A DNA stretch of 51,154 nucleotides from Escherichia phage damhaus, in sequence record NC_049827.1. One strand, given 5' to 3'. The translations under genes were made by a program, and so were the position numbers. The number at the start of each line of letters is the position of its first letter. The first letter of the stretch is position 1. Under the pieces are notes generated by a model that saw only the letters and a list, made by a program, of their open reading frames with translations, did not search any database and was not told the origin of the DNA. Shown in pieces: positions 1,646 through 50,827 of this stretch.

Positions 1646-2308
1646 ATGCATTTACCAAATGGATCGCAAATTTTCGTTGAGAGCAATCGCGGAAGCGCTA
1701 TTGAGGCAACGGCAGTATCAAACGCTAAAGATCCTGTATTCACCGTTGCATCTGGCGGAACTGCGTACAAGAAAGGTGATTATGTTATCATCACTGCGTC
1801 TTCTTGGGGTAAGCTGATTGATCGTGTTATGCGTGTAAAGACTAACGGTGAAGAAACAAGCGTAACTCTTGAGGGTGTTGATACTACCGATCAGAACGTG
1901 TTCCCGACTGGCGGCACTGCATCTTTTGCCAAGATTGATGCATGGACGGAGATCCCTTGCGTTCAGGATTTGTCGCAGGACGGCGGCGAACAGCAATACT
2001 ATACTTATCAGTGTTTGGCAGACGACCAGGAACAGCAGTTACCTACCTATAAGAGCGCCGTTTCTCTGACCTACACTTTTGCGCACGAATACGATAACGC
2101 GATCTATCCGTTACTTCGTGCAGCAGATGAATCAGGCGAAGTGACCGCGCTTCGCATGTATGTACCGAAAGCGAAAGAGATGCGTTGCTGGGCTGGTGTC
2201 CTTTCGTTTAACGAGATCCCACAAACGACCGTTAACGAAATGGAAACTGTTTCCCTGTCTGTATCCCTGAAAGGTCGATTCACCTTCCTACCTTCTCAAG
2301 TAGCATAA
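1646..2308 (+). CDS. major tail protein
   Basis: 220-aa ORF with AAGGAG RBS, followed by a strong terminator and then chaperone and tape measure genes (lambda V-like position). Confidence 0.7.
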   Translation: MHLPNGSQIFVESNRGSAIEATAVSNAKDPVFTVASGGTAYKKGDYVIITASSWGKLIDRVMRVKTNGEETSVTLEGVDTTDQNVFPTGGTASFAKIDAWTEIPCVQDLSQDGGEQQYYTYQCLADDQEQQLPTYKSAVSLTYTFAHEYDNAIYPLLRAADESGEVTALRMYVPKAKEMRCWAGVLSFNEIPQTTVNEMETVSLSVSLKGRFTFLPSQVA

Positions 2309-2313
2309 TCACA

Positions 2314-2337
2314 AGGGGCGTTGCGCCCCTTTTTTTG
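2314..2337 (+). terminator. rho-independent terminator after major tail gene
   Basis: AGGGGCG-TTG-CGCCCCT hairpin followed by a T-run. Confidence 0.7.
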
Positions 2338-2375
2338 TTACTGTACAATCATGCTACACGATTCATAATCAATTC

Positions 2376-2394
2376 TTTTAACAAAAAGTGCTAT
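2376..2394 (-). promoter_or_regulatory. conserved intergenic box, inverted copy (late region)
   Basis: TTTTAACAAAAAGTGCTAT on + strand, reverse complement of the ATAGCACTTTTTGTTAAAA box; lies between a CATAAT hexamer and the chaperone RBS. Confidence 0.6.
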
Positions 2395-2407
2395 CAAGGA
2401 GAAAGAA

Positions 2408-2725
2408 ATGTCAAAAATGAAATTGACGATTGGGCCGCTTCCTGACTTTAAATTACCAGTGAAATTTGCAATGCCTAACGGAGAAGATCAAACAATTATC
2501 TTCACAGTTCGCCACCGCAAAACAAGTGAGATTCACGAGCGATACACGTCAGATACTCCAATGAGCGATGTTGAAATGATCACCTTCCTTGCTTCCGGTT
2601 GGAATCTTGATGATGAATTTAACGAAGAAAATATTAAACAGCTTCTTGATTACTACCCAGCAACAGCAATCGGATTAACTAGCGCATACATGAAAGCGCT
2701 TGCTGGGCAGCGAGTAAAAAACTAA
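2408..2725 (+). CDS. tail assembly chaperone (lambda G-like)
   Basis: 105-aa ORF directly upstream of tape measure gene; ends with slippery A_AAA_AAC before its stop. Confidence 0.7.
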   Translation: MSKMKLTIGPLPDFKLPVKFAMPNGEDQTIIFTVRHRKTSEIHERYTSDTPMSDVEMITFLASGWNLDDEFNEENIKQLLDYYPATAIGLTSAYMKALAGQRVKN

Positions 2726-8240: not shown

Positions 8241-8267
8241 AGTCGCGCGTTGCGCGGCTTTTTTTTT
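8241..8267 (+). terminator. rho-independent terminator-like hairpin
   Basis: GC-rich imperfect hairpin followed by a T-run of about 9. Confidence 0.5.
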
Positions 8268-8313
8268 GCCCGTATAATTCAACAAATCAAATAGCACAAA
8301 AGGTGAAAAAAGC

Positions 8314-11300
8314 ATGGCTGAAAATATGATAACGGGAAGTAAGGGCGGATCATCAAAACCTTATGTTCCGAAAGAGATGGAAGATAACCTGATCTCAATC
8401 AACAAAATCAAAATCCTTCTTGCCGTTTCCGATGGCGAGTGCGATCCAGATTTTACACTTCGCGATCTGTATCTTGATGATGTTCCGGTAATTGCAGACG
8501 ACGGAACTGTTAACTACAAGGGTGTGAAAGCTGAATTTCGACCTGGAACGCAGACGCAAGATTACATCCAGGGGTTTACTGACACATCAAGCGAAGTGAC
8601 GCTGGCGCGTGACATTACGACGACAAATCCTTATGTAATTTCCGTAACCAACAAAACATTATCGGCTATCAGAATCAAAATGCTAATGCCAACAGGCATT
8701 AAGCAAGAGGATAACGGCGATCTTGTCGGCGTTAAGGTTACTTATGCTGTTGATATGGCTGTTGACGGAGACTCTTACAAAGAAGTATTGCGAGACACTA
8801 TCGAAGGTAAAACGCGTTCAGGTTACGACAGAAGCCGAAGGATTGACCTTCCGGCATTTAATGATCGCGTATTACTTAGGGTTAGAAGGGTTACGGCAGA
8901 CAGCGCATCTTCTCGCGTTACTGATCTGATTAAGCTACAAAGTTACGCTGAGGTTATTGATGCAAAATTCCGTTATCCTCTGACTGGTCTTGTATACGTT
9001 GAATTTGACAGTGAGTTGTTCCCTAACCAGATCCCTAACATTTCAATCAAGAAGAAATGGAAGTTGATTAATGTTCCGAGCAATTACGATCCGGTAATGC
9101 GAGAGTATCACGGTTCATGGAATGGCACGTTCAAGAAAGCGTGGTCGAACAATCCGGCGTGGGTACTTTATGACATTATCACAAACCAGCGATACGGATT
9201 AGATCAGCGAGAGCTTGGTGTGCAGGTTGACAAATGGAGTCTTTACGAAGCGGCTCAATACTGCGATCAGAAAGTGCCGGACGGAAAAGGCGGCACAGAG
9301 CCGCGTTATCTATGCGACGTTGTGATTCAAAGTCAGATTGAGGCTTATCAGCTTATTCGTGATATTTGCTCAATCTTCCGAGGCATGAGCTTTTGGAATG
9401 GAGAGAGCTTGTCAATCGTCATTGATAAGCCGCGCGATCCGTCGTACATCTTCACAAATGACAATGTTGTTGATGGTGATTTTCAGTACACAACAGCAAG
9501 TGAAAAGAGCATGTACACGCAGTGCAACGTGACTTTCGATGACGAACAAAACATGTATCAACAGGACGTAGAGGGTGTATTCGACACAGAGGCCGCATTG
9601 CGCTTTGGATACAATCCTACAAGCATAACCGCGATCGGATGTACACGCAGGAGTGAGGCAAATCGGCGCGGTCGATGGATACTAAAAACCAACTTGCGCA
9701 GCACTACGGTAAACTTTGCTACTGGACTGGAAGGCATGATCCCATCAATAGGTGATGTGATTGCTATTGCTGACAATTTTCACAGCAGCAACCTTAAATT
9801 AAACCTATCAGGGCGCGTGATGGAAGTTTCCGGCTTGCAGGTATTCGTTCCGTTTAAGATTGATGCTAGACCAGGTGATTTCATTATCATCAACAAGCCG
9901 GACGGTAAGCCAGTTAAGCGCACAATCTCAAAGGTAAGCGGTGACGGAAAAACCATTGAGCTAAACATAGGGTTTGGGTTTGAAGTTAAGCCGGATACAG
10001 TTTTTGCAATCGACCGCACTGATATTGCATTGCAGCAATACGTTGTTACGTCTATCAGCAAAGGTGATGATGAGGATGAATTTACATACTCCATCACGGC
10101 TGTTGAATATGATCCTAACAAATACGACGAGATTGATTACGGAGTAAACATTGACGACAGGCCAACTTCAATTGTCCAGCCTGACACGATGGCAGCACCG
10201 GAAAACGTGCAAATATCCTCATACTCGCGAATTGTCCAGGGTGCAAGCGTTGAAACAATGGTTGTGTCGTGGGATAAAGTACCTTACGCATCACTGTATG
10301 AAATGCAATGGCGTAAAGGCGATGGCAACTGGCTGAATACACCACAGACCGCAAACAAAGAAATTGAGGTTGAAGGTATTTATTCAGGAAACTACCAGGT
10401 AAGGGTGAGATCTGTTTCTGCTTCCGGTTCGACTTCGCCGTGGTCCAGAATTGTGACAGCTTCACTGACTGGTAAGGTAGGAGAGCCAGGCGCGCCAGTT
10501 AACTTAACCGCATCCGACAATGAAGTTTTTGGCATTCGTGTTAAGTGGGGGATGCCAGAAGGGAGCGGAGACACGGCATACATTGAGCTTCATCAGTCGC
10601 CGGATGGAACGGCTGAAAACTCAAGCCTGCTAACGCTGATCCCGTATCCACAATATGAATACTGGCATGGAACGCTTCCGGCTGGTCATGTTGTATGGTA
10701 TCGGATCAGGAGCGTAGACAGGATCGGCAACGTTTCCGGTTGGACTGATTTTGTTAGAGGTATGGCTTCAGATGATGTGGAGGCTGTTTTAGGAGATATT
10801 CTTGACAAGATTTTTGATACTGAAGCAGGTCAGGATCTGAAAGAGAACGCCATTGACAGTGCAAACAAGATAAAGGACCAGGCGCAAGCAATCATCCAGA
10901 ATGCTCTTGCTAATGATGCTGATATTAAGTGGACGCGAGTACAAAACGGAAAGAGAAAGGCTGAATATGGTCACGCTCTTGAGCTTATAGCCACAGAGAC
11001 TGAGGCACGAGTTACGCAGATTGAAGAATTGAGGGCGTCAATAGACGAGGATATTGTTTCAAGCATAAAGACAGTGCAGGAGGCTATCGCCACAGAATCT
11101 GAAACGCGAGCAACTCAAATAAACGCTTTGGATTCAAAATTCACAACTGAAATTGACGGCGTAAAACGCGATACAGCAGCAAGCATTAATCAGGTGAATC
11201 AAACAATTGCCAACGAATCTGAAGCGCGAGCGCAGGCCGTTAACGCTCTTGATGCGAAGTTCACAAAGGAGATCGAAGATTTAAACGGAGTTATTAAGAC

Positions 11301-12913: not shown

Positions 12914-13141
12914 TTACAGACTGCAATCAGCGTTTTTAAAGTTGTCAATGCTTACCCACTGAAAATTAAACGGATAGCCAGCCTTAACAAGAGTGCGGTC
13001 GCCAACTCGTTTTACTCCAAAAATAGCAACTGAATACTGCATACCGCTATTTTCATAAATAGCCGTGCATTCACGTTTAGGCATATTTGCGCAACCAGTC
13101 ATGGTTACGGCTGCAATCAAAACGGCGATTAATTTTTTCAT
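12914..13141 (-). CDS. small outer-membrane lipoprotein, putative superinfection-exclusion (Cor/Llp-like)
   Basis: 75 aa with signal peptide and lipobox (MTGC); convergent with receptor-binding-like genes as in T1/T5-type phages. Confidence 0.55.
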   Translation of the reverse strand: MKKLIAVLIAAVTMTGCANMPKRECTAIYENSGMQYSVAIFGVKRVGDRTLVKAGYPFNFQWVSIDNFKNADCSL

Positions 13142-13196
13142 CTTGGTATCTCCTTCGTTGTTGTTGGTTGCAACTATACACGATCTTACAGCAGGC

Positions 13197-13217
13197 GTTT
13201 AGCAAAAAGTGCTATTC
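13197..13217 (-). promoter_or_regulatory. conserved intergenic box, degenerate copy
   Basis: reverse complement reads GAATAGCACTTTTTGCTAAAC; on the minus strand followed by TATAGT and the leader/RBS of the lipoprotein gene. Confidence 0.5.
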
Positions 13218-13585
13218 TGTTCTTTTTGTTCTCGCGTGTTCTCAAATCTGCGGAGTCTTAAATTTAGCTCAAAAAGTGAACAATAATAGAGAGCAATACA
13301 TACAGATAAATATATATACATACATATAAATCAATAAGTTAGTAGTATATATATTTATGTTTGTTCTTTATTGTTATCTATGTTTTGTGTGATTTTGTGT
13401 GTCTGGTGATTTTTCTGTGATTATGCATGTGTCAGTGGTTATGTGTGCCTATATATCTATATCCGGCGCAAATTGAGGAACAAGAGAACAAAACGACAAC
13501 AAAGATATTTATCAATCACTTACATGTAAGTTTTGTTATCCAAATTGACGAGAACGTTGTTAAAACAGAAAAAACAAAATAACTA

Positions 13586-16291: not shown

Positions 16292-16535
16292 CACTTTCAG
16301 CCATCCCAAGCACGGCAATCACCTTAACAGCAATTCTCTTTGCAAGTTCAGTTTGATGAGCGTTAAGTTTTCCAGTGGTCATTATTGACAACATTCCGCT
16401 CATACTTCCAAGCCCGTTAAGATCTGACATTGCAGATTTCATTATTGATATTGGTGAATGACCATCATCAGCTATTGTGTGCGCTCTCTCTGACAGGTCT
16501 TTAACTACCTGATCAATTCCTTCACTTTTCGTCAT
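16278..16535 (-). CDS. hypothetical protein
   Basis: 85-aa ORF; its 3' end overlaps the terminator hairpin, so the true extent is uncertain. Confidence 0.4.
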   Translation of the reverse strand: MTKSEGIDQVVKDLSERAHTIADDGHSPISIMKSAMSDLNGLGSMSGMLSIMTTGKLNAHQTELAKRIAVKVIAVLGMAESEKGA

Positions 16536-18268: not shown

Positions 18269-20431
18269 TTAAAGATTGTTATTTAAAGATGAAACAATGG
18301 CTTTCAACTCTTCAATTTCACTTTCAAGTTTAGAGATCCTTTCATCGCTTTCTCTGCAAACCTGCACAAGCAAGCCAGTTAAAGCCGAGTAATCAACTGC
18401 AAGATACCTTTCCTCGCCAAGAACGCGATCCCCATCAGTTGACGGGCCAGGTAATTCCTCATAATTAAATCCACCGCTTATTGCCTCCGGCAATGCTTCC
18501 ATTACCTCTTGTGCAATAACACCAGCGTAAGGCATACCATTTGATTTGAGTGTGTAGGTGTAACCATTAATCTTGCGCAGCGATTCAGTAGCGTTCTCAA
18601 TCTTCTGAATGTTATCTTTCAGAGTCCCATCTGAAACTTGAGTAAGAGTCGTACACTCAATGTTTCCGTTCATCTTCATCGTTCTTGATCCATCCTTGTT
18701 TTCCTGCACATAGTAGAAATAGCCATCAGGAACGCCCCATTCAATAACAGTTGGTCGATCAGCGCTACCCCATAAACGCATCGCCGCATCTTTTGCCGCA
18801 GACTTAACGTTGTGTAATCTGTAAGCCCTACCGCCATTAATCAATGAGATAACAGAGCCTTTAGAATCAATATATCCGACACCTCCCTTTGAATTTAATT
18901 CAACAGTACCATCTGCTTTCAAAGATAAGTTGTTACCTCCGCCACCGTCATTGTAAAAAGAAGCACCATTGTTACCAGTAATCCTGAATCCGTTACCACT
19001 AATTTCACCACCAAAAGAAACGTTTCCGTCTGGAGTGAGTGACATGCATCTTTTGATTAACTCTGAATTGTTTCTATAAGAATAGATCGCGTAATTCGGG
19101 CCATAAAAGCCAGCCCTAAAACCAGGTTGACCGTCAGCGAATAGGTAAACAGTCCAGCAACCACCACTAGATTCATCCGACGCACGTTGAATTTTTACCG
19201 CGTCTTGACTTCCTTTGAATAATTGAGAGCCAACAAAAGTGTTTGAAACATTTAGACCAGGAACATCAAGATTCTTTCTTGCTTCAGGAGCATTAAGAGC
19301 ACCAGTTCCTCCGCGAGCAACAGAAAGAGCAACCCATCCATCAGTATCATAAACGCCCCAACCAACACCGCGATCTTTCAATGAAAAGTAAGTGTTTTTA
19401 TCTGGGCATCTTACTATTGTTTCAGTGCTGTCTTGTTCAAAGCGATCAAGGCTTAAATTCTGTTTTGATTGTACAACATCAACCACGTCTGAAAGGTTCG
19501 CATCTTTGCGCATCATGTTTGTTGCATCCAACTGTTTTGCAAGTTCAGCGGCGCGATCAGCTTCATTTTTTGCAGTAGTCGCAGAAACAGCGGCGGCAGT
19601 TGCAGAAACAGCGGCGGCAGTTTTCGACGCATCAGCGGATTGCGCTGATTGTGCGGCCTGAGTCTTTGACGTGTTAGCGGCTGTTTCGCTCGCCTTTGCG
19701 TTTGTCTCGCTTGCCTTAGAATTAGTCTCGCTTGTCTTTGCGGCTGTTGCAGATGCGGCGGCGGATGTCTTGCTTGCCATTGCTGCATTCTCTGACGCTT
19801 TCGCGTTTGTTTCGCTGGTTTTCGCGGCTGCCTGGCTTGTCTTTGCCGCAGCCTCTGACGATTTGGCGTTTGTTTCACTGGTCTTTGCGGCGGCTTGTGA
19901 TGCATCGGAGGCGATCTGGCTTGCTCTTGCTGAATCCTGACTTGCCTTTGCAGCATTCTTGAATTGTTCCGCGTCATTTCTTGCATTAACAGCATTTGTT
20001 TCGCTTGTCTTTGCTGCGGAAGCGCTTTGCTTTGCTGATTCAGCGCCTTGCTTGACTTGATTTACAAGATCCTTCAATCCTTCAAGATCAAAGTCTCTAA
20101 AAAATTCAAGTGCATCCGCGATCTCTGTTTCTTTGCTTTGATAGTAACGCAATGTTTCAGCTACATCTTGAGCAAGACCATCAACAGTTATTGAGTCATG
20201 AAGTAAGATCGCGTAATTTGAACGGGTAACTACCGCGCCACCAGTTGTAATTGCACGAATGCTTGTATCGTTAATAACTTCAGTTATCACGGCAATCTGC
20301 AACGGCTGAGTTAAAAATACAATAGTTGCGCCAGGGCGAATGAGCGTTAGTTGTTCTCGCCATTTTGTGTCGTATCCAGTGATATAACCTTGAGCGTCCA
20401 TTGACGCTTGTCCAGTTCTGTAAATTGCCAT
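18269..20431 (-). CDS. lateral tail fiber protein with C-terminal intramolecular chaperone (peptidase S74-like)
   Basis: Start moved to Met34 with GGGAGA RBS; A/S/T-rich repeats [13 protein letters not shown]; C-terminal chaperone-like region ending in a coiled coil. Confidence 0.8.
19550..19990. repeat. imperfect tandem repeats (about 39 bp) inside tail fiber gene
   Basis: Reiterated GCTTGTCTTTGCGGC-like units encoding [13 protein letters not shown]-type repeats. Confidence 0.6.
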
Positions 20432-20488
20432 GCGTTTTCTCCCATGTTGCATGTTAATGTCAATGCAGATAATAGCATTTGATAAGGT

Positions 20489-20511
20489 AAAAAAAAACCC
20501 CGCAATGCGGG
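20489..20511 (-). terminator. rho-independent terminator (minus strand) after primase
   Basis: CCCCGC-ATT-GCGGGG hairpin followed by a long U-run on the minus strand. Confidence 0.65.
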
Positions 20512-20530
20512 GTAAAAGTAGCAGTGACAT

Positions 20531-21518: not shown

Positions 21519-21992
21519 TTAGCAATTAGTGCTTTCAGGTTTATACAGGAATCCGCCAGGTTCATAATCTGACATTCTTACCACTCGCAACATTTCACGC
21601 TTATCACATCTCTTTGTGAGCGGTTTGCCATTGGAATCAAATCGCAGGTCTGGACGACAAAATGATGCGCGATAACCTTGACAGCCATACTTTTTATAAT
21701 CATTGTGCACCTTTTGAGCGCCAGCGGCTGAAATCATACCGCGAACGCGCCACTGATTTACAGTTTGCTGGCTAACGTTAAGACGTTTTGCCATTGCTGA
21801 TACACTTCCGTAATACTCAATAAGGATGTCAAGGCGCGCTTTTAGTCCGGCGCGAACTTCATCTTTTAAAACATAGTATCCTGTAGGGCGCTTGCGCTTT
21901 TTCTTATCTTTACCCCGTCGAGTTCCGTTGTTGCCATTAATTGTGCGCTTGTCAATCTTGCCAGTTGATACGGCGATCCGCTGTTCTTTCAT
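21519..21992 (-). CDS. HTH-domain DNA-binding protein (putative transcriptional regulator)
   Basis: 157 aa; predicted helix-turn-helix SVSAMAKRLNVSQQTVNQW; very basic N-terminus; divergent from helicase gene. Confidence 0.55.
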   Translation of the reverse strand: MKEQRIAVSTGKIDKRTINGNNGTRRGKDKKKRKRPTGYYVLKDEVRAGLKARLDILIEYYGSVSAMAKRLNVSQQTVNQWRVRGMISAAGAQKVHNDYKKYGCQGYRASFCRPDLRFDSNGKPLTKRCDKREMLRVVRMSDYEPGGFLYKPESTNC

Positions 21993-22081
21993 TATTCATT
22001 CTCCAATAGCATTTTTTGTTAAACGATGATTTAATGATTGTGTATTATACACGCCAAATGGCATTACTCAAAGGTTTTAGA

Positions 22082-24127: not shown

Positions 24128-24533
24128 TAAAGGCGATTATCTGGAGTTTTACGAAAGAGATCCGACAGATACGCTAAAAGAGGAATCTCACCAGATCGGG
24201 GCGTTTCAATGGTTAACTTATGCTCATCCTGAATTACTGGCATGGCATACGAAAAACGAGGGCGACAAGGGGATCGCCACCGCAATGATGGATCAGCAAG
24301 CTGGGCTTGTTAAGGGCGTAAGTGATTTTATCATCCTGATTGGATTAAAAGGTCGTTACCCGTTCGCGGCAATTGAGATGAAGCGCGTCAATAAGTCCGG
24401 CAAGGGTAAGGCTTCACCAGTCAGCAAGGACCAAAAAGCCTTCTTGCGTCGTGTGCGTGAGCTTGGCGGATTCGCTGCCGTAACATACGGATATAAGCAA
24501 TTCATGATCGCTGTAGAATACATGATGAAATAG
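24114..24533 (+). CDS. VRR-NUC-like PD-(D/E)xK nuclease
   Basis: 139 aa with D...E-x-K pattern (GVSDFIIL...AIEMK). Confidence 0.55.
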   Translation: MAMTDKGDYLEFYERDPTDTLKEESHQIGAFQWLTYAHPELLAWHTKNEGDKGIATAMMDQQAGLVKGVSDFIILIGLKGRYPFAAIEMKRVNKSGKGKASPVSKDQKAFLRRVRELGGFAAVTYGYKQFMIAVEYMMK

Positions 24534-24549: not shown

Positions 24550-24607
24550 AGGCGCGAAGGATTGCGCCATAATAACGCCAGTTCAACAAGCAACAGGTAA
24601 TTAAGAA

Positions 24608-25313: not shown

Positions 25314-25553
25314 ATGCAGAAAGAAAGAAGCGTTTATTTAAATGAAACTGGAGAGTGGTTGTTATTTCGCGCTATGGTTTGCGAGGCGCTTGATAAAAAC
25401 GATTTCATAAAGCCGCTATTAGGTTGCGACCCGTGGGAGTTTACAAGCGCGCTTGATATGAGCTTTGAGGAAACAAGAAAACTACCGCTTGAAAAATGGC
25501 ATGAGCAGATCGGTAAAGACTTGCAAGAGTTTTACGAATCCGCGTCAAAATAG
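25314..25553 (+). CDS. hypothetical protein
   Basis: 79 aa from an internal Met of track ORF 24966-25553; GGAG RBS. Confidence 0.5.
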   Translation: MQKERSVYLNETGEWLLFRAMVCEALDKNDFIKPLLGCDPWEFTSALDMSFEETRKLPLEKWHEQIGKDLQEFYESASK

Positions 25554-25569: not shown

Positions 25570-25625
25570 GCCCGGCCTTGTGTCGGGCATAATTATTTCA
25601 TCAAAACGAACAAGAGGAAAACAAA

Positions 25626-28732: not shown

Positions 28733-28793
28733 GATGTTTTCCTTCTGGTCGTTTCGTCTCGATGAAACAAATATACCCGATACGAGATCGGGT

Positions 28794-31581: not shown

Positions 31582-31636
31582 CGTTTATTTCTCCTTTCGT
31601 TTCGGTGAAGTGATTATGCCAGGATTTTACACCTGG

Positions 31637-34812: not shown

Positions 34813-35345
34813 CTCAACTGGCGATTATTCCATCTATTCCATTAATCAGGAATAACAGGAATAACTCATTCGAGATCACCTGGATTGTGAGATCTTGAGT
34901 TTGATCAATTTTAATCAGGTGATTAACTTTTTGTGTGGAGGGGATAGAGAAACGCGGTCCTCTTGCGTCCTTTCCGGCAATCCTGGCGCGCGCATCTGTT
35001 ATCTTCTGTTATCGCTGTTATGCGTGTTATTCCGGCGTGGAATCGCATAACAAAAAATAACAAGAGAAATCCATATAACATACTAAAAAATAAGGATTAT
35101 TTATTTATATGTATCTATAAATTACTATCTGTTGTGCGTGTTATGTGGTCATATTGATGCCTGATGTATTTTTGGTGATTGTATGTGGTTGTGTGTTGGC
35201 AGGTATGTATATATGGGGCGGTGGCGTATCCGCGCATTTTTAGATAACACGCAAAAACAACATTGATTTATAAGAAAAAAAACACAAATCCTGTTGTGTT
35301 CTGAAAAGACAACATAGGAAAACCGCCAATAACAATAAAAAACAG

Positions 35346-36152: not shown

Positions 36153-36209
36153 GCCAGGCGCAAAGCCTGGAATAATAGCCTCATCGAAACGAGATTGAGG
36201 AAAACAAAA

Positions 36210-37026: not shown

Positions 37027-37605
37027 GTGGATAATATCAAGTATCCGATTGTTTTTCATTGTGGCGGTTCAACAATCAGGTTCACATCGCGCGACAATGG
37101 CGTTTATAGCGATGGTCAGAAATCAGAGTTGAAAGTTGATTTCTTTGTTAATGGTCACAACAAATTCAATCCGCACAATGAAACTGGCAATGTGTACTAC
37201 GTGGAAGACATTACAAAACACTTGTTTGGGGAAACACCATTCGGCGGCGGGAAGACGTCAATTCAACAAATCATTGGCGAGGAGATCCACAAGGCAGCCG
37301 TTGAAATGAAAGCGCCTGGAGGCTGTAAGATTGATAAAATCGACCTTATCACCATTCGCTCAAAGATTGGCGGAGTTGAATACGAGGGCAAAATTGAAAA
37401 AATGCCGCTCGGCGCTTCAATTATCGGCATCAAAGACGACAACGGCGATTGGCATGATGTTTCTTTCCCGATCAAGCGTATCGAAGTTCTCGACGACTTG
37501 ATTTGCCTCCTGGCGCATCATGGCAGCTATAAGAACAATCCGTTCTCCGCAGAGCTAAACATCAAGCGCGGAACGCTGGTTAAGTGGAAGGTTAAGTGTA
37601 AATAG
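37027..37605 (+). CDS. hypothetical protein
   Basis: 192-aa ORF; only possible start is GTG without a clear SD; ends inside a box copy. Confidence 0.45.
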   Translation: MDNIKYPIVFHCGGSTIRFTSRDNGVYSDGQKSELKVDFFVNGHNKFNPHNETGNVYYVEDITKHLFGETPFGGGKTSIQQIIGEEIHKAAVEMKAPGGCKIDKIDLITIRSKIGGVEYEGKIEKMPLGASIIGIKDDNGDWHDVSFPIKRIEVLDDLICLLAHHGSYKNNPFSAELNIKRGTLVKWKVKCK

Positions 37606-38078: not shown

Positions 38079-38614
38079 AAAAATACGAATTTGAACTTTG
38101 GGGAAGCAAATACCATTTTTCCACTAGCAAGCCGATTGTTATTGTTGACCTTGACGGCACGTTATCAGATGGAACGCACCGCTTGCACCTGCTGCCGACA
38201 GAAGATTTGCACCTTACAGAAAGCTGGTCTGAGTTCAACAAAGCGGCTGTTGGCGATTCGCCGATTAAGAGCACGGTTTCAGTGGTTAACGGATTGTGGA
38301 TGTCAGGATTTGCCATCGTTATCCTGACAGGGCGCAGCGATGAGGTGATGGCTGACACCTGCGACTGGTTAAATTATAACGGCATCAAGTACGACGCGTT
38401 AATCATGCGCCGAAAGGAAGATAACCGAAAAGACACGATCATCAAAGAGGAAGTCTTGCGAGCTATCGGACTGGAAAACATTGTGTGCGCTTTTGATGAT
38501 TCGCCGAACGTGGTTAAGCACTTCCGCAGCCTGGGAATCACAACCTATCAGGTCACGGAATACGAAAAGCCACATAATCACATCCAATCGCACGGCGTGG
38601 ATGAATTAAAATAG
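38075..38614 (+). CDS. HAD-superfamily phosphatase (polynucleotide 3'-phosphatase-like)
   Basis: DLDGTL (DxDxT) motif near the N-terminus; start at Met5 overlapping the upstream stop. Confidence 0.6.
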   Translation: MKKYEFELWGSKYHFSTSKPIVIVDLDGTLSDGTHRLHLLPTEDLHLTESWSEFNKAAVGDSPIKSTVSVVNGLWMSGFAIVILTGRSDEVMADTCDWLNYNGIKYDALIMRRKEDNRKDTIIKEEVLRAIGLENIVCAFDDSPNVVKHFRSLGITTYQVTEYEKPHNHIQSHGVDELK

Positions 38615-39381: not shown

Positions 39382-39972
39382 ATGAAAAGAGACATTATCA
39401 TCCTTAACGGACCGCCAGGGGTTGGCAAGGATACGCTTGCGGCATACTTAACGGGCCATCGTTACGCAGCCGTTAAAGCGTCGTTTAAACAGCCTATGTT
39501 TGATATTGCGTTTTCCATGCTTGGCGTTTACCGATATGACGAGTTCATTGATCTGTATAACGACCGCGAGCAGAAAGAAAAGCCTCAAGCAATCTTGCAA
39601 GGCAAGTCGCCTCGCCAGTTCATGATCTGGATTAGCGAAGAAGTTATGAAGCCAGCTTTTGGCGAGCAATATTTCGGAAATCGCATGGTTGAGCAAGTAC
39701 ACGAGATGTACAGAGATTTAGCTGTTGTAATTAGTGATGGCGGATTCCCTGAAGAAATCAAACCGCTCGTTAAGGCAGGCCATGAAGTTCACATTTGCCG
39801 ACTGCATCGCGAAGGCTTCACGTTTGATGGCGATTCACGAAACTATATTGACCTGAGCGGATACCATCACCGCGTAAAACATTACGACTTCACAATGATT
39901 GATGGCGATCAAGAAAAGACTGTTGACGAGATCATCAAAACGGTCCAGTGGAAACACATTAAGATCAAATAG
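39382..39972 (+). CDS. P-loop nucleotide kinase (dNMP kinase-like)
   Basis: GPPGVGKDT Walker A near the N-terminus, a GKDT-type motif as I recall it from phage dNMP kinases; start at Met6. Confidence 0.55.
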   Translation: MKRDIIILNGPPGVGKDTLAAYLTGHRYAAVKASFKQPMFDIAFSMLGVYRYDEFIDLYNDREQKEKPQAILQGKSPRQFMIWISEEVMKPAFGEQYFGNRMVEQVHEMYRDLAVVISDGGFPEEIKPLVKAGHEVHICRLHREGFTFDGDSRNYIDLSGYHHRVKHYDFTMIDGDQEKTVDEIIKTVQWKHIKIK

Positions 39973-39988: not shown

Positions 39989-40042
39989 CGGGGCGCAATG
40001 CCTCGCTATAATGCAAACACCAATCAACGAGAGGAAATCATC

Positions 40043-43967: not shown

Positions 43968-45535
43968 TGCTGATTTGGGAAGACTTAACAGCGGCGCAGA
44001 AACGCGCCGTTAAGGAAATGAGCGAATATTCATTCGAAAAGATGATCCGCATCTGGTTTCAATTATTGCAAGGTCAGAAATTCTTAGGAAACTGGCATTT
44101 CAGCTACCTATGCAGCGAAGTTGAAAAAATCATCAAAGGCGAGTCACAGAATGTAATTTTCAACATAACGCCAGGCAGCGGTAAAACAGAGATATTCTCG
44201 ATCCATATGTCACCTTATGCGTCATTGAAAAGTAAGAAGGTGCGAAATCTTAATCTTTCGTTTAGTGATGGCCTTGTCCAGCAGAATAGCAACCGAATTA
44301 AGGAGATTATTGGTTCTCCAGAATGGCAGGAGCTATGGCCTGGAAAGCTGGCAAAGGCGAGCGCAAAGGATTTGATTGTAACCGATGGCGGCAAGGTTAA
44401 GTTACAAGTTAACTCGCGTTCTATCGGTGGCCAGGTTACTGGTCTGCGTGGTGGCTACATGGACGATGGATTTACTGGTATGCTGGTTCTTGACGATCCA
44501 GACAAGCCGGATGACATGCTTTCTAAGGTAAAGCGCGAAGCCGGACACATGCGCCTAAAGAACACAGTGCGATCGCGTCGAATGAAGGACACAACGCCAA
44601 TCGTAATGGTCCAGCAACGTCTACACGTCAATGATTCAACATGGTTCATGACAAACGGAGGTATGGGCGGCATCCAGTTTAAGGTTGTTAGCATTCCGGC
44701 GCTAGTTACTAAGGAATATCGCGAAACGCTTCCTGATTGGTTAAAGCCTGAGTTTGATCGCGATGTTTTGTCCAGTAAGCCAGTGATGATTGATGGAGTT
44801 GCTCATTATTCATTCTGGCCTGCTAAGGAAAGCGCGGAGGAATTGCTTGCGCTTCGAAATGCTGATCCGTACACGTTCGCTAGTCAGTATCAGCAACAGC
44901 CTGTTGCGCTTGGCGGTAACGTGTTTAAAACAGAGTGGTTTCAGTATTACGGCAGCAGCGAAAAATGCACGCTACCAAAACCGGATCGCTTTGAATATAC
45001 ATTTATCACGGTTGATACCGCACAGAAAACAGGGGAGCTTAACGACTATTCCGTGATCTGTTATTGGGGGATGTATAAAGATCGTGTTTACTTCATTGAT
45101 GGTGTTCGCGGAAAATGGGAAGCACCGGACCTTGAGACGAATTTTGTTGCATTCGTTAATCAGTGCTGGAAGCGCAATAAAGAATGCGGAACGTTGAGAA
45201 GGATTCATGTTGAAGATAAATCGTCTGGCACTGGTTTGATTCAGAGTGCAGCGAAAAAAATCATGATCAAGATCAATCCCGTTCAGCGAGATAAAGATAA
45301 GGTTACGCGAGCAATGGACGCAGCGCCAGTAATGCGCGCCGGACGCGTAGCACTTCCAGAATCGCATCCTATGCTGGCTGAGATACTCGCTGAAGTTGCG
45401 GCGTTTACATTCGATGATTCGCATCCTCATGATGATATTGTTGATAACATCATTGATGCGGTTAACATTGAAATGAACATGGCAGATGATCCGGTAGGAA
45501 GAATGAAAAAATTGGCAGGTTTGCGGAACAAATAG
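43967..45535 (+). CDS. terL: terminase large subunit
   Basis: 522 aa; Walker A (PGSGKTE); size and position upstream of portal. Confidence 0.8.
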   Translation: MLIWEDLTAAQKRAVKEMSEYSFEKMIRIWFQLLQGQKFLGNWHFSYLCSEVEKIIKGESQNVIFNITPGSGKTEIFSIHMSPYASLKSKKVRNLNLSFSDGLVQQNSNRIKEIIGSPEWQELWPGKLAKASAKDLIVTDGGKVKLQVNSRSIGGQVTGLRGGYMDDGFTGMLVLDDPDKPDDMLSKVKREAGHMRLKNTVRSRRMKDTTPIVMVQQRLHVNDSTWFMTNGGMGGIQFKVVSIPALVTKEYRETLPDWLKPEFDRDVLSSKPVMIDGVAHYSFWPAKESAEELLALRNADPYTFASQYQQQPVALGGNVFKTEWFQYYGSSEKCTLPKPDRFEYTFITVDTAQKTGELNDYSVICYWGMYKDRVYFIDGVRGKWEAPDLETNFVAFVNQCWKRNKECGTLRRIHVEDKSSGTGLIQSAAKKIMIKINPVQRDKDKVTRAMDAAPVMRAGRVALPESHPMLAEILAEVAAFTFDDSHPHDDIVDNIIDAVNIEMNMADDPVGRMKKLAGLRNK

Positions 45536-45550
45536 CACGAATCGACAAAC
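45530..45550 (+). promoter_or_regulatory. conserved intergenic box, degenerate copy
   Basis: AAATAGCACGAATCGACAAAC overlapping the TAG stop of terL; TATATAAT and a canonical terminator follow. Confidence 0.5.
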
Positions 45551-45563
45551 CAATATATAATCA

Positions 45564-45589
45564 AAGGCTGGTAAATCCAGCCTTTTTTA
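45564..45589 (+). terminator. rho-independent terminator
   Basis: AAGGCTGG-TAAAT-CCAGCCTT hairpin followed by TTTTTT. Confidence 0.7.
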
Positions 45590-45603
45590 TTGGAGGAAAG
45601 ATA

Positions 45604-49334: not shown

Positions 49335-49769
49335 ATGAGTGATTATTCAGTCATTGTTGGCGCTGAGTCGCCAGGGTGCATGGTCGATTCTTCAATAATG
49401 GTGATTAACGGATCTTTCGTGTGCGGAGATGAATTTATTGCGCCAGGTAAGATTGTGCGACTATCACATATAACAAATGGATACAAAATAGCAAGTGTTA
49501 ATGGGGATCTCGTTATTGGCGTGGCAGTAAGGCCGCCGGACTCGTGCATATATGAGGAGGGCGATCCAGTTAATGTGGTTAGTCGAGGTAGTGTTTGGTG
49601 CTTAACTTCTGAGAGCGAAGCGCCAGAATATGGAGATAAAGTATTTGTAACGCAAGATGGATATGCGGCATACAGTGAAGGCGACTTGCTGATTGGTTGG
49701 ATCTTTACTGGCGAACATGTAAAGGTTGATCATGATTCATATATTGTCGGGGTAAGCATTGACTCATAA
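49335..49769 (+). CDS. putative capsid decoration / structural protein (paralog)
   Basis: 144 aa sharing the G(V/I)A(V/I)R ... VW(M/C)L ... A(P/E) pattern with the preceding ORF. Confidence 0.5.
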   Translation: MSDYSVIVGAESPGCMVDSSIMVINGSFVCGDEFIAPGKIVRLSHITNGYKIASVNGDLVIGVAVRPPDSCIYEEGDPVNVVSRGSVWCLTSESEAPEYGDKVFVTQDGYAAYSEGDLLIGWIFTGEHVKVDHDSYIVGVSIDS

Positions 49770-49787
49770 CACAAAATTATGTTGCAC

Positions 49788-49806
49788 GTTTAACAAAAAA
49801 TGCTAT
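49788..49806 (-). promoter_or_regulatory. conserved intergenic box, inverted degenerate copy (late region)
   Basis: GTTTAACAAAAAATGCTAT on + strand upstream of the major capsid gene, followed by a hairpin and RBS. Confidence 0.5.
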
Positions 49807-49852
49807 CATTGGTCCGTTACATACTAACGGCCTTTATATATGGAGGAAGAAA

Positions 49853-50827
49853 ATGGAAAAAGAAAAATTTGATCAGCTAGATGCGGATATTGTTTCTAGC
49901 TATCTGGCTACTCGCGGCGTTAAAGGTGATGCGTCCGATATGGGTATTTGGACCGCTCAAGAACTGCATAAGATTCGCTCTAATGCTTACGAGAAAGAAT
50001 ATCCGGCAGGTTCGGCGCTTCGTGTATTCCCTGTAACTAATGAGCTTTCTGATACTGATAAGACTTTTGAATATCAGATGTTTGACAAAGTTGGTTACGC
50101 AAAAATTATCGCTGATTACACCGACGACCTGCCGACCGTTGATGCGCTGATGTCTAGCGAATTCGGTAAAGTGTTCCGCTTGGGTAACGCGTTCTTGATC
50201 TCAATTGACGAAATCAAGGCTGGTCAGCGTACTGGTAAGAGCCTTTCTACTCGCAAGGCAAACGCAGCGCAAAACGCTCATGATCAGGAAGTTAACCGCT
50301 TAGTGTTTAAGGGTTCAAAGCCGCATAAGATTCTTTCTGTGTTTGAACATCCTAACCTGACAAAGATCGTGTCAACTGGCTGGTTAAGTTCTGATGAAAA
50401 CACCAAGTTCCCACAGGCGGCATCTGATGAACTGGAAAAGGCTATTGAAACCATTCAGACCATTACCAATGGTCAGCACCGCGCAACCAATATCCTGATT
50501 CCGCCGTCTATGCGCAAGGTTCTTTCAGTTCGAATGGAAAACACCACTGAAAGTTATCTGGAATACTTCCAGAAACAAAACAGCGGGATCACCATCGATT
50601 CAATCGCAGAGCTTGAGGATATTGATGGCGTTGGAACGAAAGGTTGCCTGGTATATGAGAAAGACCCGATGAACATGTCGATCGAAATTCCAGAAGCATT
50701 TAACATGCTTCCGGCGCAACCAAAAGATCTGCATTTCAAAGTTCCGTGCACTTCAAAATGTACTGGCCTGACGATTTACCGTCCGTTTACGCTAGTACTT
50801 ATTACTGGCTTGAAAAAATCAGGTTAA
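49853..50827 (+). CDS. major capsid protein
   Basis: 324-aa ORF with GGAGGAAG RBS, strong terminator downstream, position after decoration-like genes. Confidence 0.7.
   Translation: MEKEKFDQLDADIVSSYLATRGVKGDASDMGIWTAQELHKIRSNAYEKEYPAGSALRVFPVTNELSDTDKTFEYQMFDKVGYAKIIADYTDDLPTVDALMSSEFGKVFRLGNAFLISIDEIKAGQRTGKSLSTRKANAAQNAHDQEVNRLVFKGSKPHKILSVFEHPNLTKIVSTGWLSSDENTKFPQAASDELEKAIETIQTITNGQHRATNILIPPSMRKVLSVRMENTTESYLEYFQKQNSGITIDSIAELEDIDGVGTKGCLVYEKDPMNMSIEIPEAFNMLPAQPKDLHFKVPCTSKCTGLTIYRPFTLVLITGLKKSG

Follow-up and report, generated by a model that had tools for sequence, protein, structure and literature searches.

The stretch of DNA analysed here (the window) comprises 51,154 nucleotides (nt) of Escherichia phage damhaus (NC_049827.1), a T1-like phage of the Drexlerviridae (Tempevirinae, Hanrivervirus), and the element in question is a repeated box, AAATAGCACTTTTTGTTAAAAC, two copies of which stand inverted in front of late structural genes. 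Copy 1 lies in the gap between the major tail tube gene and the tail assembly chaperone gene, and copy 2 between the gene of a cement/decoration-like capsid protein and the major capsid gene (Table 1). Over its first 8 kb the window shares 97-98% identity with Escherichia phage haarsle, Shigella phage pSf-1 and relatives, and the hosts of the nearest relatives are Escherichia and Shigella.

At up to 5 mismatches the box has 17 copies in the window, 15 of them co-oriented with the downstream gene; the remaining two, at 2375-2396 and 49787-49808, alone run opposite to the plus-strand late genes. On the plus strand, TTTAACAAAAAGTGCTATCA at 2377-2396 and TTTAACAAAAAATGCTATCA at 49789-49808 are reverse complements of the box found in the early cassettes. 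For the 20-mer core, 14 sites with up to 3 mismatches compare with 0.04 expected, and none of 100 shuffled sequences held as many. An earlier reading of this DNA from its letters alone (the original prediction), whose gene calls agree with Pfam and PHROGs, had reported inverted copies at both late sites, and they proved to be correctly positioned, far above chance and conserved in relatives; it had also stated that copy 1 adjoins the ribosome-binding site (RBS) of the chaperone gene, and indeed the box ends at 2396 and abuts the AAGGAG motif.

The box and the marbox consensus

The repeat as such has been described. A 21-nt direct repeat, aaATAGCACnnnTTGnTAAAA, was published in 2024 for phage TLS and reported too for T1, Rtp and Rogue1, with stoperators, enhancers and UP elements as the authors' candidates and its function named as an open question (PMC11447400). 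The damhaus box has this TLS/T1 repeat consensus, and it also matches, beyond what the original prediction had recognised, the marbox, i.e. the asymmetric 20-bp site for MarA, SoxS and Rob (RamA in Klebsiella), enterobacterial regulators of the AraC family that bind as monomers. Three marbox definitions were used, the 15-mers gcannwwntgnnaaa (PMC12052159) and GCAHWWWWTGYYAAA (PMC6900184) and the 20-mer AYNGCACNNWNNRYYAAAYN (PMC2064960). The common T-type box, GCACTTTTTGTTAAA, agrees with 15 of 15 positions of both 15-mers and with 13 of the 14 specified positions of the 20-mer; copies 1 and 2 score the same against all three.

Sites of this kind are strongly enriched. The window holds 20 exact 15-mer marbox sites against 1.9 expected (0 of 100 shuffles) and 21 sites with at most 1 mismatch to the 20-mer against 1.5 expected; exact sites number 14-20 each in T1, TLS, Rtp and haarsle and 1 in lambda, and a scan of IMG/VR with the exact 20-mer returned matches almost only on contigs of 46-53 kb. 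No MarA-like protein was found among 576 open reading frame (ORF) segments of the window with a MarA/SoxS/Rob profile, and Pfam detected no AraC-type domain in the 20 window ORFs of suitable size, so that the binder of a marbox in this phage would be host-encoded. Consensus, geometry and conservation together suggest that the box is a marbox of host type, to which a host protein would bind. In the literature searched, the genome papers of T1 (2004) and Rtp (2006) excepted, we found no link between marboxes and T1-like phages; the repeat itself is known, and the reading proposed here is that of marbox promoters, in class II and core-overlapping positions, across the genome of a virulent phage.

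Several other identities of the box were considered and rejected. Taken as a sigma54-like element (TGGCAC, 5 nt, TTGC) it has the wrong spacing and lacks the GG; sites for IHF, Fis, CRP, DeoR, ArcA and LexA, compared by eye, do not fit; and the dyad of a dimer operator (TAGCA, 5 nt, TGCTA) is real in the G-type boxes but inherent in the marbox consensus, and its flanks are asymmetric. The stoperators of mycobacteriophage L5 are asymmetric sites in one fixed orientation relative to transcription and are bound by the phage repressor; the late copies of the damhaus box stand both ways, and the only phage repressor candidate that turned up is a Cro-like regulator. UP elements, the sites of alpha-CTD, the C-terminal domain of RNA polymerase's alpha subunit, are A/T-rich in consensus, occupy -59 to -38 and precede a -35; the box, at about -50 to -31, has an invariant GCAC and belongs to early promoters that have no -35. 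Nor do copies 1 and 2 obey the rule given for the TLS repeats, which are described as co-directional with transcription and about 76 nt before start codons (PMC11447400): both are inverted, and they end 12 and 45 nt, respectively, before the start codon.

The early cassettes show in which promoter setting the box is normally used. Class II marbox promoters have a forward site, clustered near -41, and no -35 (literature including PMC12052159). In the early cassettes the marbox is forward, with its centre at about -40, in place of a -35, none being present, and after 18 nt comes TAnnnT. Among 84 boxes of four genomes the best TAnnnT lies exactly 18 nt past the 20-mer in 59 and 17-19 nt past it in 71. 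In E. coli micF, according to our measurement, GCACTGAATGTCAAA ends 21 nt before TAGAAT, which is 19 nt from the 20-mer, with the centre at -41. Because of the consensus match, the centre near -40, the absence of a -35 and the fixed spacing, the early cassettes qualify as class II in sequence and layout. The alternative of reading TTGTTA/TTGCTA within the box as an early -35 was discarded, as the spacer would be 22 nt.

Promoters around the two inverted copies

Copy 1 was found in 29 of 54 unique intergenic sequences, T1 included, and the sequences that lack it are about 35-40 nt shorter. Wherever the box is present the order of elements is invariant (plus-strand -10, 1 nt, ATnnnA, 20 variable nt, 18-mer), and a minus-strand TAnnnT stands 18 nt from the marbox in all 28 box-bearing relatives and in none of the 23 box-less ones, with T1, A2 and T6 kept among forms such as TAGGAT, TACGAT, TAGAGT, TAGCAT and others. 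Column conservation amounts to 98% in the marbox, 80% in the hexamer, 64% in the spacer and 62-64% in the flanks. Since both the layout and the TAnnnT track the box, copy 1 appears to be a whole class II promoter on the minus strand that is gained and lost as a unit, and judged by its sequence and layout it is a complete class II unit; we call its predicted promoter P-.

The same gap carries a rightward promoter, P+. Its pattern, TTGNNN, 16-18 nt and TAnnnT, laid across the T-run of the terminator, is present in 51 of 53 unique relatives, and its -10 reads TAAAAT, TAGAAT or TACAAT in 29 of 29 box-bearing relatives and in box-less ones too. Relative to P-, copy 1 stands at about -40; relative to P+ it covers about +20 to +39, and its centre, at about +28 to +30, is just outside the core-overlapping range (about -35 to +25). 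P- is directed leftward and P+ rightward, with divergent predicted starts about 12 bp apart, so the two promoters cannot both hold polymerase. P- faces the terminator and the tube gene's 3' end, and its RNA would start with the terminator hairpin, in a minus-strand version without a proper U-tract; after P- there is no conserved minus-strand terminator or ORF. The antisense RNA had been predicted to be short, and this cannot be claimed for copy 1, because the terminator scores as such on the plus strand only and the minus-strand tail is not U-rich in T1.

The CATAAT hexamer that had been noted upstream of copy 1 is present, but outside Hanrivervirus it is variable, its columns being only about 64% conserved; as a promoter it would pair with TGTACA (9/12), but the region has 2 promoter-like matches against 5.9 expected, and we do not retain it in that role. 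Class I activation of the chaperone gene by copy 1, defined by a reverse marbox centred 53-85 bp upstream of the start site of the gene that it faces, was rejected, as the start would fall at 2437-2469, inside the chaperone ORF. The same applies to a plus-strand extended -10 (TGcTATCAA), in which position 6 is not T, which is not conserved and whose start would lie past the RBS, and to a pair of face-to-face promoters, for which the recomputed start sites show a divergent, overlapping pair. At the tube/chaperone site of Rtp we observed an extra gene, rtp34, under the control of a forward class II cassette (Rtp 16303-16380).

Copy 2, to judge from the sequence, is not an antisense unit and lies within a conserved plus-strand sigma70 promoter of the capsid gene, which reads TTGCAC-[GTTTAACAAAAAATGC]-TATCAT with a TG at the extended -10 position. 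The marbox, at about -29 to -10, takes up the 16-nt spacer plus three bases at the front of the -10 and, with its centre at about -20, is a core-overlapping one (centre at about -35 to +25 of a sigma70 promoter). The pattern TTGNNN, 16-nt spacer, TATNNT recurs in 40 of 51 unique capsid-upstream sequences, the spacer being G/C plus the reverse marbox; the -35 is TTGCAC in 19, TTGAAC in 7, TTGACG in 7 and TTGACC in 5 relatives, and the -10 has A2 and T6 in 39 of the 51 (TATCAT 19, TATATT 9, TATTCT 9). The marbox is exact in 33 of 51 unique relatives, and copy 2 is present in essentially all Drexlerviridae loci examined; in Rtp it was not found at up to 3 mismatches. Its homologue in TLS is the repeat DR7, tabulated on the negative strand just before the hairpin T35 (PMC11447400). 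In part of Webervirus the capsid marbox is down to 2 mismatches with the -35 and -10 kept, and because there the promoter outlasts a decayed marbox, we consider the capsid promoter primary and the marbox an overlay.

Antisense promoters had been suggested for both copies as one of two options. This agrees with the P- promoter at copy 1 and fails at copy 2, where the minus-strand hexamer at class II spacing is TATGAG/TTATGA, in the stop-codon region, not conserved and no -10; an antisense transcript running from copy 2 towards the adjacent terminator also has to be given up, as any such transcript would run away from the hairpin. For copy 2, too, class I activation, here of the capsid gene, was rejected, since the start would fall at 49849-49881, at or after the ATG. 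At the capsid and portal promoters (49804-49830 and 45556-45590) a hairpin with a T-run was observed 3-5 nt downstream, with the predicted start inside its 5' arm; upstream read-through would terminate there, and promoter-started transcripts would be without the full stem.

The late copies are forward before the portal and J-like fibre genes and reverse before the capsid and chaperone genes. The site before the J-like tail-tip fibre gene overlaps its RBS, with a like arrangement in T1 and TLS; in T1 terS a forward late marbox overlaps the RBS, and the side tail fibre (stf) genes of T1 and Rtp have a reverse marbox at about +1 to +18. The marbox between the Cro-like regulator and helicase genes is at the same time a reverse site at about +12 to +31 of the regulator gene's minus promoter (TTGAGT, 16 nt, TATAAT, 22071-22044) and adjoins the RBS of this regulator, the same layout being found in T1 and TLS. 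In TLS three canonical promoters in all were found, and the equivalent regulator promoter, P57, is among them (PMC11447400). As far as can be read from the DNA, late and early copies differ by position relative to the core promoter and not by orientation. The original prediction was right in seeing a DNA-level element and a late-gene control unlike that of the early cassettes; orientation is not what sets the two apart, since the late promoters carry the box either way, and the difference is one of position.

Table 1. Coordinates of the genes, marboxes and promoter elements discussed in the text
Feature	Position	Strand	Remarks
Major tail tube gene	1646-2308	+	Pfam Phage_tail_3, E = 1.7e-64; PHROG major tail protein
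Intrinsic terminator hairpin and T-run after tube gene	2313-2336	+	Scores as terminator on + only
P+ -35-like TTGCGC	2321-2326	+	In terminator loop and 3' arm
P+ -10 TACAAT	2344-2349	+	17 nt from TTGCGC; predicted start about 2356
P- -10-like TAGCAT	2351-2356	-	Exactly 18 nt past marbox; predicted start about 2344
CATAAT hexamer	2364-2369	+	In variable marbox-to-P- spacer
Copy 1, 20-bp marbox ATAGCACTTTTTGTTAAAAG	2375-2394	-	Exact to GCANNWWNTGNNAAA; 1 mismatch to AYNGCACNNWNNRYYAAAYN
Chaperone RBS AAGGAG	2396-2401	+	Sequence; ATG at 2408
Tail assembly chaperone gene	2408-2725	+	Pfam Phage_TAC_4, E = 1.8e-31
Marbox-like site before J-like fibre gene	8291-8310	+	1 mismatch to 15-mer; about +8 to +27 of TTGCGC, 16 nt, TATAAT (8250-8277)
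Cro/YdaS-like helix-turn-helix (HTH) regulator gene	21519-21992	-	Pfam, PHROGs
Regulator/helicase marbox	22006-22025	+	Class II for helicase gene, -10 TATTAT at 22043-22048
Spacer hairpins of early cassettes	24550-24567, 25570-25587, 28776-28793, 31619-31636, 36153-36170, 39989-40006		
Leader motif CATCGAAACGA, examples	25598-25610, 36181-36193	+	
Leader motif CATCGAAACGA, example	34743-34731	-	
Portal-gene marbox	45532-45551	+	1 mismatch to 20-mer; over -35 and spacer of TAGCAC, 17 nt, TATAAT (45533-45561)
Cement/decoration-like capsid protein gene	49335-49769	+	Upstream of copy 2; Pfam XM1_gp53_minor_capsid, Phage_cement
Capsid promoter -35 TTGCAC	49782-49787	+	After A-rich tract; TTGNNN in 40/51 unique relatives
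Copy 2, 20-bp marbox ATAGCATTTTTTGTTAAACG	49787-49806	-	Exact to GCANNWWNTGNNAAA; 1 mismatch to 20-mer
Capsid extended -10 TGcTATCAT	49801-49809	+	Hexamer TATCAT at 49804-49809; predicted start about 49816
Hairpin and T-rich tail after capsid promoter	49814-49830	+	Fold kept, sequences differ in relatives; in TLS annotated as terminator T35
Capsid RBS GGAGGA	49842-49847	+	
Major capsid gene	49853-50827	+	Pfam Major_capside, E = 1.2e-53

A proposed host-regulator switch and its alternatives

T1-like phages encode neither an RNA polymerase nor a sigma factor and contain hardly any canonical promoters, and the marbox reading accounts for early promoters without a -35, for the "inverted" late boxes and for the regulator/helicase module. 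We propose, with a probability of about 0.55, that both late copies are marboxes in non-activating positions which restrain the late promoters, and that the early promoters are activated in the class II manner by a host regulator of the MarA family. A host protein of this family would bind the phage marboxes and activate the early class II promoters; Rob, being constitutive, would be the likeliest binder. At the capsid promoter the bound regulator would fill the spacer, touch the -10 and hinder RNA polymerase, as at pbpG. At copy 1 it would draw polymerase to P-, whose antisense RNA would cover the tube-gene end and the terminator, and P+ would be shut out by the polymerase at P-, with the bound protein also blocking the path of P+ transcripts. 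The net effect, as we infer it, would be active early promoters and restrained late ones as long as active regulator is available; replication, multiplying the approximately 20 consensus sites per genome, would then dilute the regulator by titration and flip the balance. More tentatively, and as a possibility that we would not yet favour, the whole temporal programme of T1-like phages might be run on host MarA/SoxS/Rob (RamA), with early activation, late hold-back at the capsid, portal, chaperone and fibre promoters and a switch at replication.

The closest parallel is E. coli pbpG, whose marbox overlaps the promoter spacer and on which MarA, SoxS and Rob act as repressors (PMC12052159). Like the capsid promoter, it has a reverse marbox between the -35 and the -10, and by our measurement it reads TTGACG-[ATCGCACTTTTTGCTCGT]-TATGAT. 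In pbpG the site deviates at 2 positions and stops 4 bp short of the -10, in a promoter with an 18-nt spacer, whereas the phage site is exact and runs into the -10 behind a spacer of 16 nt; and pbpG is a repressed host gene, whereas the phage site belongs to a late structural gene of a virulent phage, where repression would be expected by analogy. Promoters of the micF type resemble the early cassettes and the minus strand of copy 1 in having a forward marbox at the position of the -35 and a normal -10, the distance from the 20-mer to the -10 being 19 nt in micF and 18 nt in the phage. P- is unlike them in that it has no gene downstream and faces a terminator and tube-gene antisense. A single marbox with two overlapping promoters and opposite expected effects, as at copy 1 and at the regulator/helicase site, has its likeness in E. 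coli lpxC, where one marbox overlaps the core of P1 and is class II for P2, both promoters serving lpxC (PMC12052159); the phage pairs differ in diverging, with predicted starts about 12-18 bp apart, whereas the lpxC promoters share one gene. The phage marboxes are exact to the consensus and number about 20 per 50 kb, and host mar/sox/rob sites are degenerate and scattered. The TLS repeat has the same sequence as the box, and TLS is without copy 1; the paper describing it makes no mention of marboxes and has no comment on the opposite strand of DR7 (PMC11447400).

A number of considerations speak against the proposed restraint by a host regulator. Unstressed cells contain little MarA and SoxS, and most of their Rob is in inactive aggregates. 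T1-like phages grow fast in ordinary culture, and unless the regulator were active beforehand, nothing would shield the late sigma70 promoters at time zero. About half of the lineages (TLS, Rtp, Webervirus) do without copy 1, and, given this patchiness and the decayed capsid marbox of some Webervirus phages, the late copies seem dispensable. The binder may be phage-encoded instead of a host protein. Finally, MarA can activate from inside a core promoter, as at the sigma28 promoter flgBP2, by distortion of DNA (PMC12781870), and for this reason the effect at the capsid promoter, which we infer to be negative, might also be positive.

Two alternatives keep the architecture or the regulator and change the other part. 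In one of them, which we regard as rather unlikely, the Cro/YdaS-like HTH regulator of the phage would activate at -40 and repress at the core, the match to the marbox being coincidence or mimicry. It is the only recognisable DNA-binding regulator of the phage, a canonical sigma70 promoter of its own gene reads into a box abutting its own RBS, which looks like autoregulation, and the dyad TAGCA, 5 nt, TGCTA of G-type boxes would suit a dimer; the box, however, is asymmetrically conserved over 20 nt and fits three marbox consensuses and the class II spacing exactly, and a GCA...TGC dyad is already inherent in the marbox consensus. Moreover, the regulator is only 55-64% identical across subfamilies, with an altered putative recognition helix, yet the box is invariant, and a single-sequence AlphaFold model of it contains one small HTH core only, at low confidence (predicted local distance difference test score, pLDDT, 48). 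In the other, a host MarA-family protein would bind but the late copies would act positively, either by a distortion that opens the capsid promoter or through an effect of P- RNA on the tube mRNA, at its 3' end or terminator. Activation at flgBP2 by distortion of base pairs beside the site (PMC12781870) is the precedent, the GCA end of the capsid marbox abuts the -10, and P- RNA would open with a stable terminator hairpin complementary to the tube mRNA tail. However, flgBP2 is a defective promoter read by sigma28, whereas the capsid promoter is equipped with a good -35 as well as an extended -10; the flgBP2 distortion lies 5 bp outside the site, whereas the capsid -11 is inside the 20-mer; pbpG, the one spacer-located sigma70 marbox examined, is repressive; and downstream of P- there is neither terminator nor ORF conserved on the minus strand. 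We therefore look on a positive role of the late copies with considerable doubt.

Explanations that do without a DNA-bound regulator at the late sites fare worse. The late copies could be functionless relics of mobile early-type cassettes (promoter-bearing morons) inserted inverted into late gaps, and such cassettes clearly are mobile, as shown by the forward one with its extra gene at the tube/chaperone site of Rtp and by one complete cassette on a 174-kb contig of non-T1 size; the patchy distribution of copy 1 is in line with it. Against this stand the marbox columns, 98% conserved beside flanks at about 63%, the invariant length of the spacer, a TAnnnT retained in 28 of 28 sequences across subfamilies whose tube proteins are only 70% identical, and the fact that copy 2 is built into the promoter family-wide, so that we find relics very improbable. 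Hardly credible, in our opinion, is an action of the inverted box in the 5' leader of late mRNA, as a translational operator or a processing site near the RBS, to which the abutment of copy 1 on the chaperone RBS and the overlap of forward copies with the RBS of the J-like fibre gene and T1 terS might point: late copies occur in both orientations, so that the RNAs would differ, the chaperone leader folds no better than its shuffles (z = 0.00), copy 2 precedes the predicted start site, and the window contains no match to any Rfam family.

The marbox reading rests on sequence, geometry and conservation only. Were the whole temporal programme run on the host regulators, phage development would be coupled to the host responses to antibiotics, oxidative stress and bile salts, and replicating phage DNA would be a sponge for regulators of efflux-mediated drug resistance. 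If the marbox reading is true, a large family of enterobacterial phages in therapy collections would answer to regulators of efflux and porins, which bears on the combination of phages with antibiotics.

Observations on cassettes, late promoters and repeats

Several genes end directly at the next marbox, on the TAG that it contains (aaATAGcac) or on an abutting TAA (24531-24533, 25551-25553, 37603-37605, 38612-38614 and 39970-39972; on the minus strand 30979-30977 and 31655-31653), so that coding sequence, regulator site and next promoter are packed gap-free. The 18-nt stretch from the marbox to the -10 is often a GC-rich hairpin of -7 to -12 kcal/mol, and it may be the 3' stem-loop or terminator of the upstream transcript, set inside the next promoter. 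About 5 nt past the -10, a conserved leader motif is present in 8 of 18 early cassettes, and also in cassettes of T1, TLS and Rtp. The contig IMGVR_UViG_648019609_000001 (174,436 bp, far above T1-like size) holds one complete early-type cassette at 9990-10090, in the order marbox, 18 nt, TATAGT, CCATCGAAAC leader, RBS and ATG, which suggests that the early-type cassette moves between phage families. A small minus-strand gene in the late region (12914-13217), with a lipoprotein-type signal peptide and a Cor-like position, has its own class II marbox promoter at 13196-13217.

At 2313-2349 and 8242-8277 the late promoter overlaps the preceding intrinsic terminator, whose loop and 3' arm contain the -35 TTGCGC and whose T-run acts as the spacer. 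The side tail fibre gene (18269-20530, minus strand) contains at least 8 degenerate copies of a repeat with a 21-nt period at 19656-20035, probably a 7-residue repeat of the protein. Two AT-rich 36-nt inverted repeats, 13302-13337 and 35097-35132, lie 21.8 kb apart at borders of gene blocks, and one of them is annotated as repeat_region in the haarsle record.

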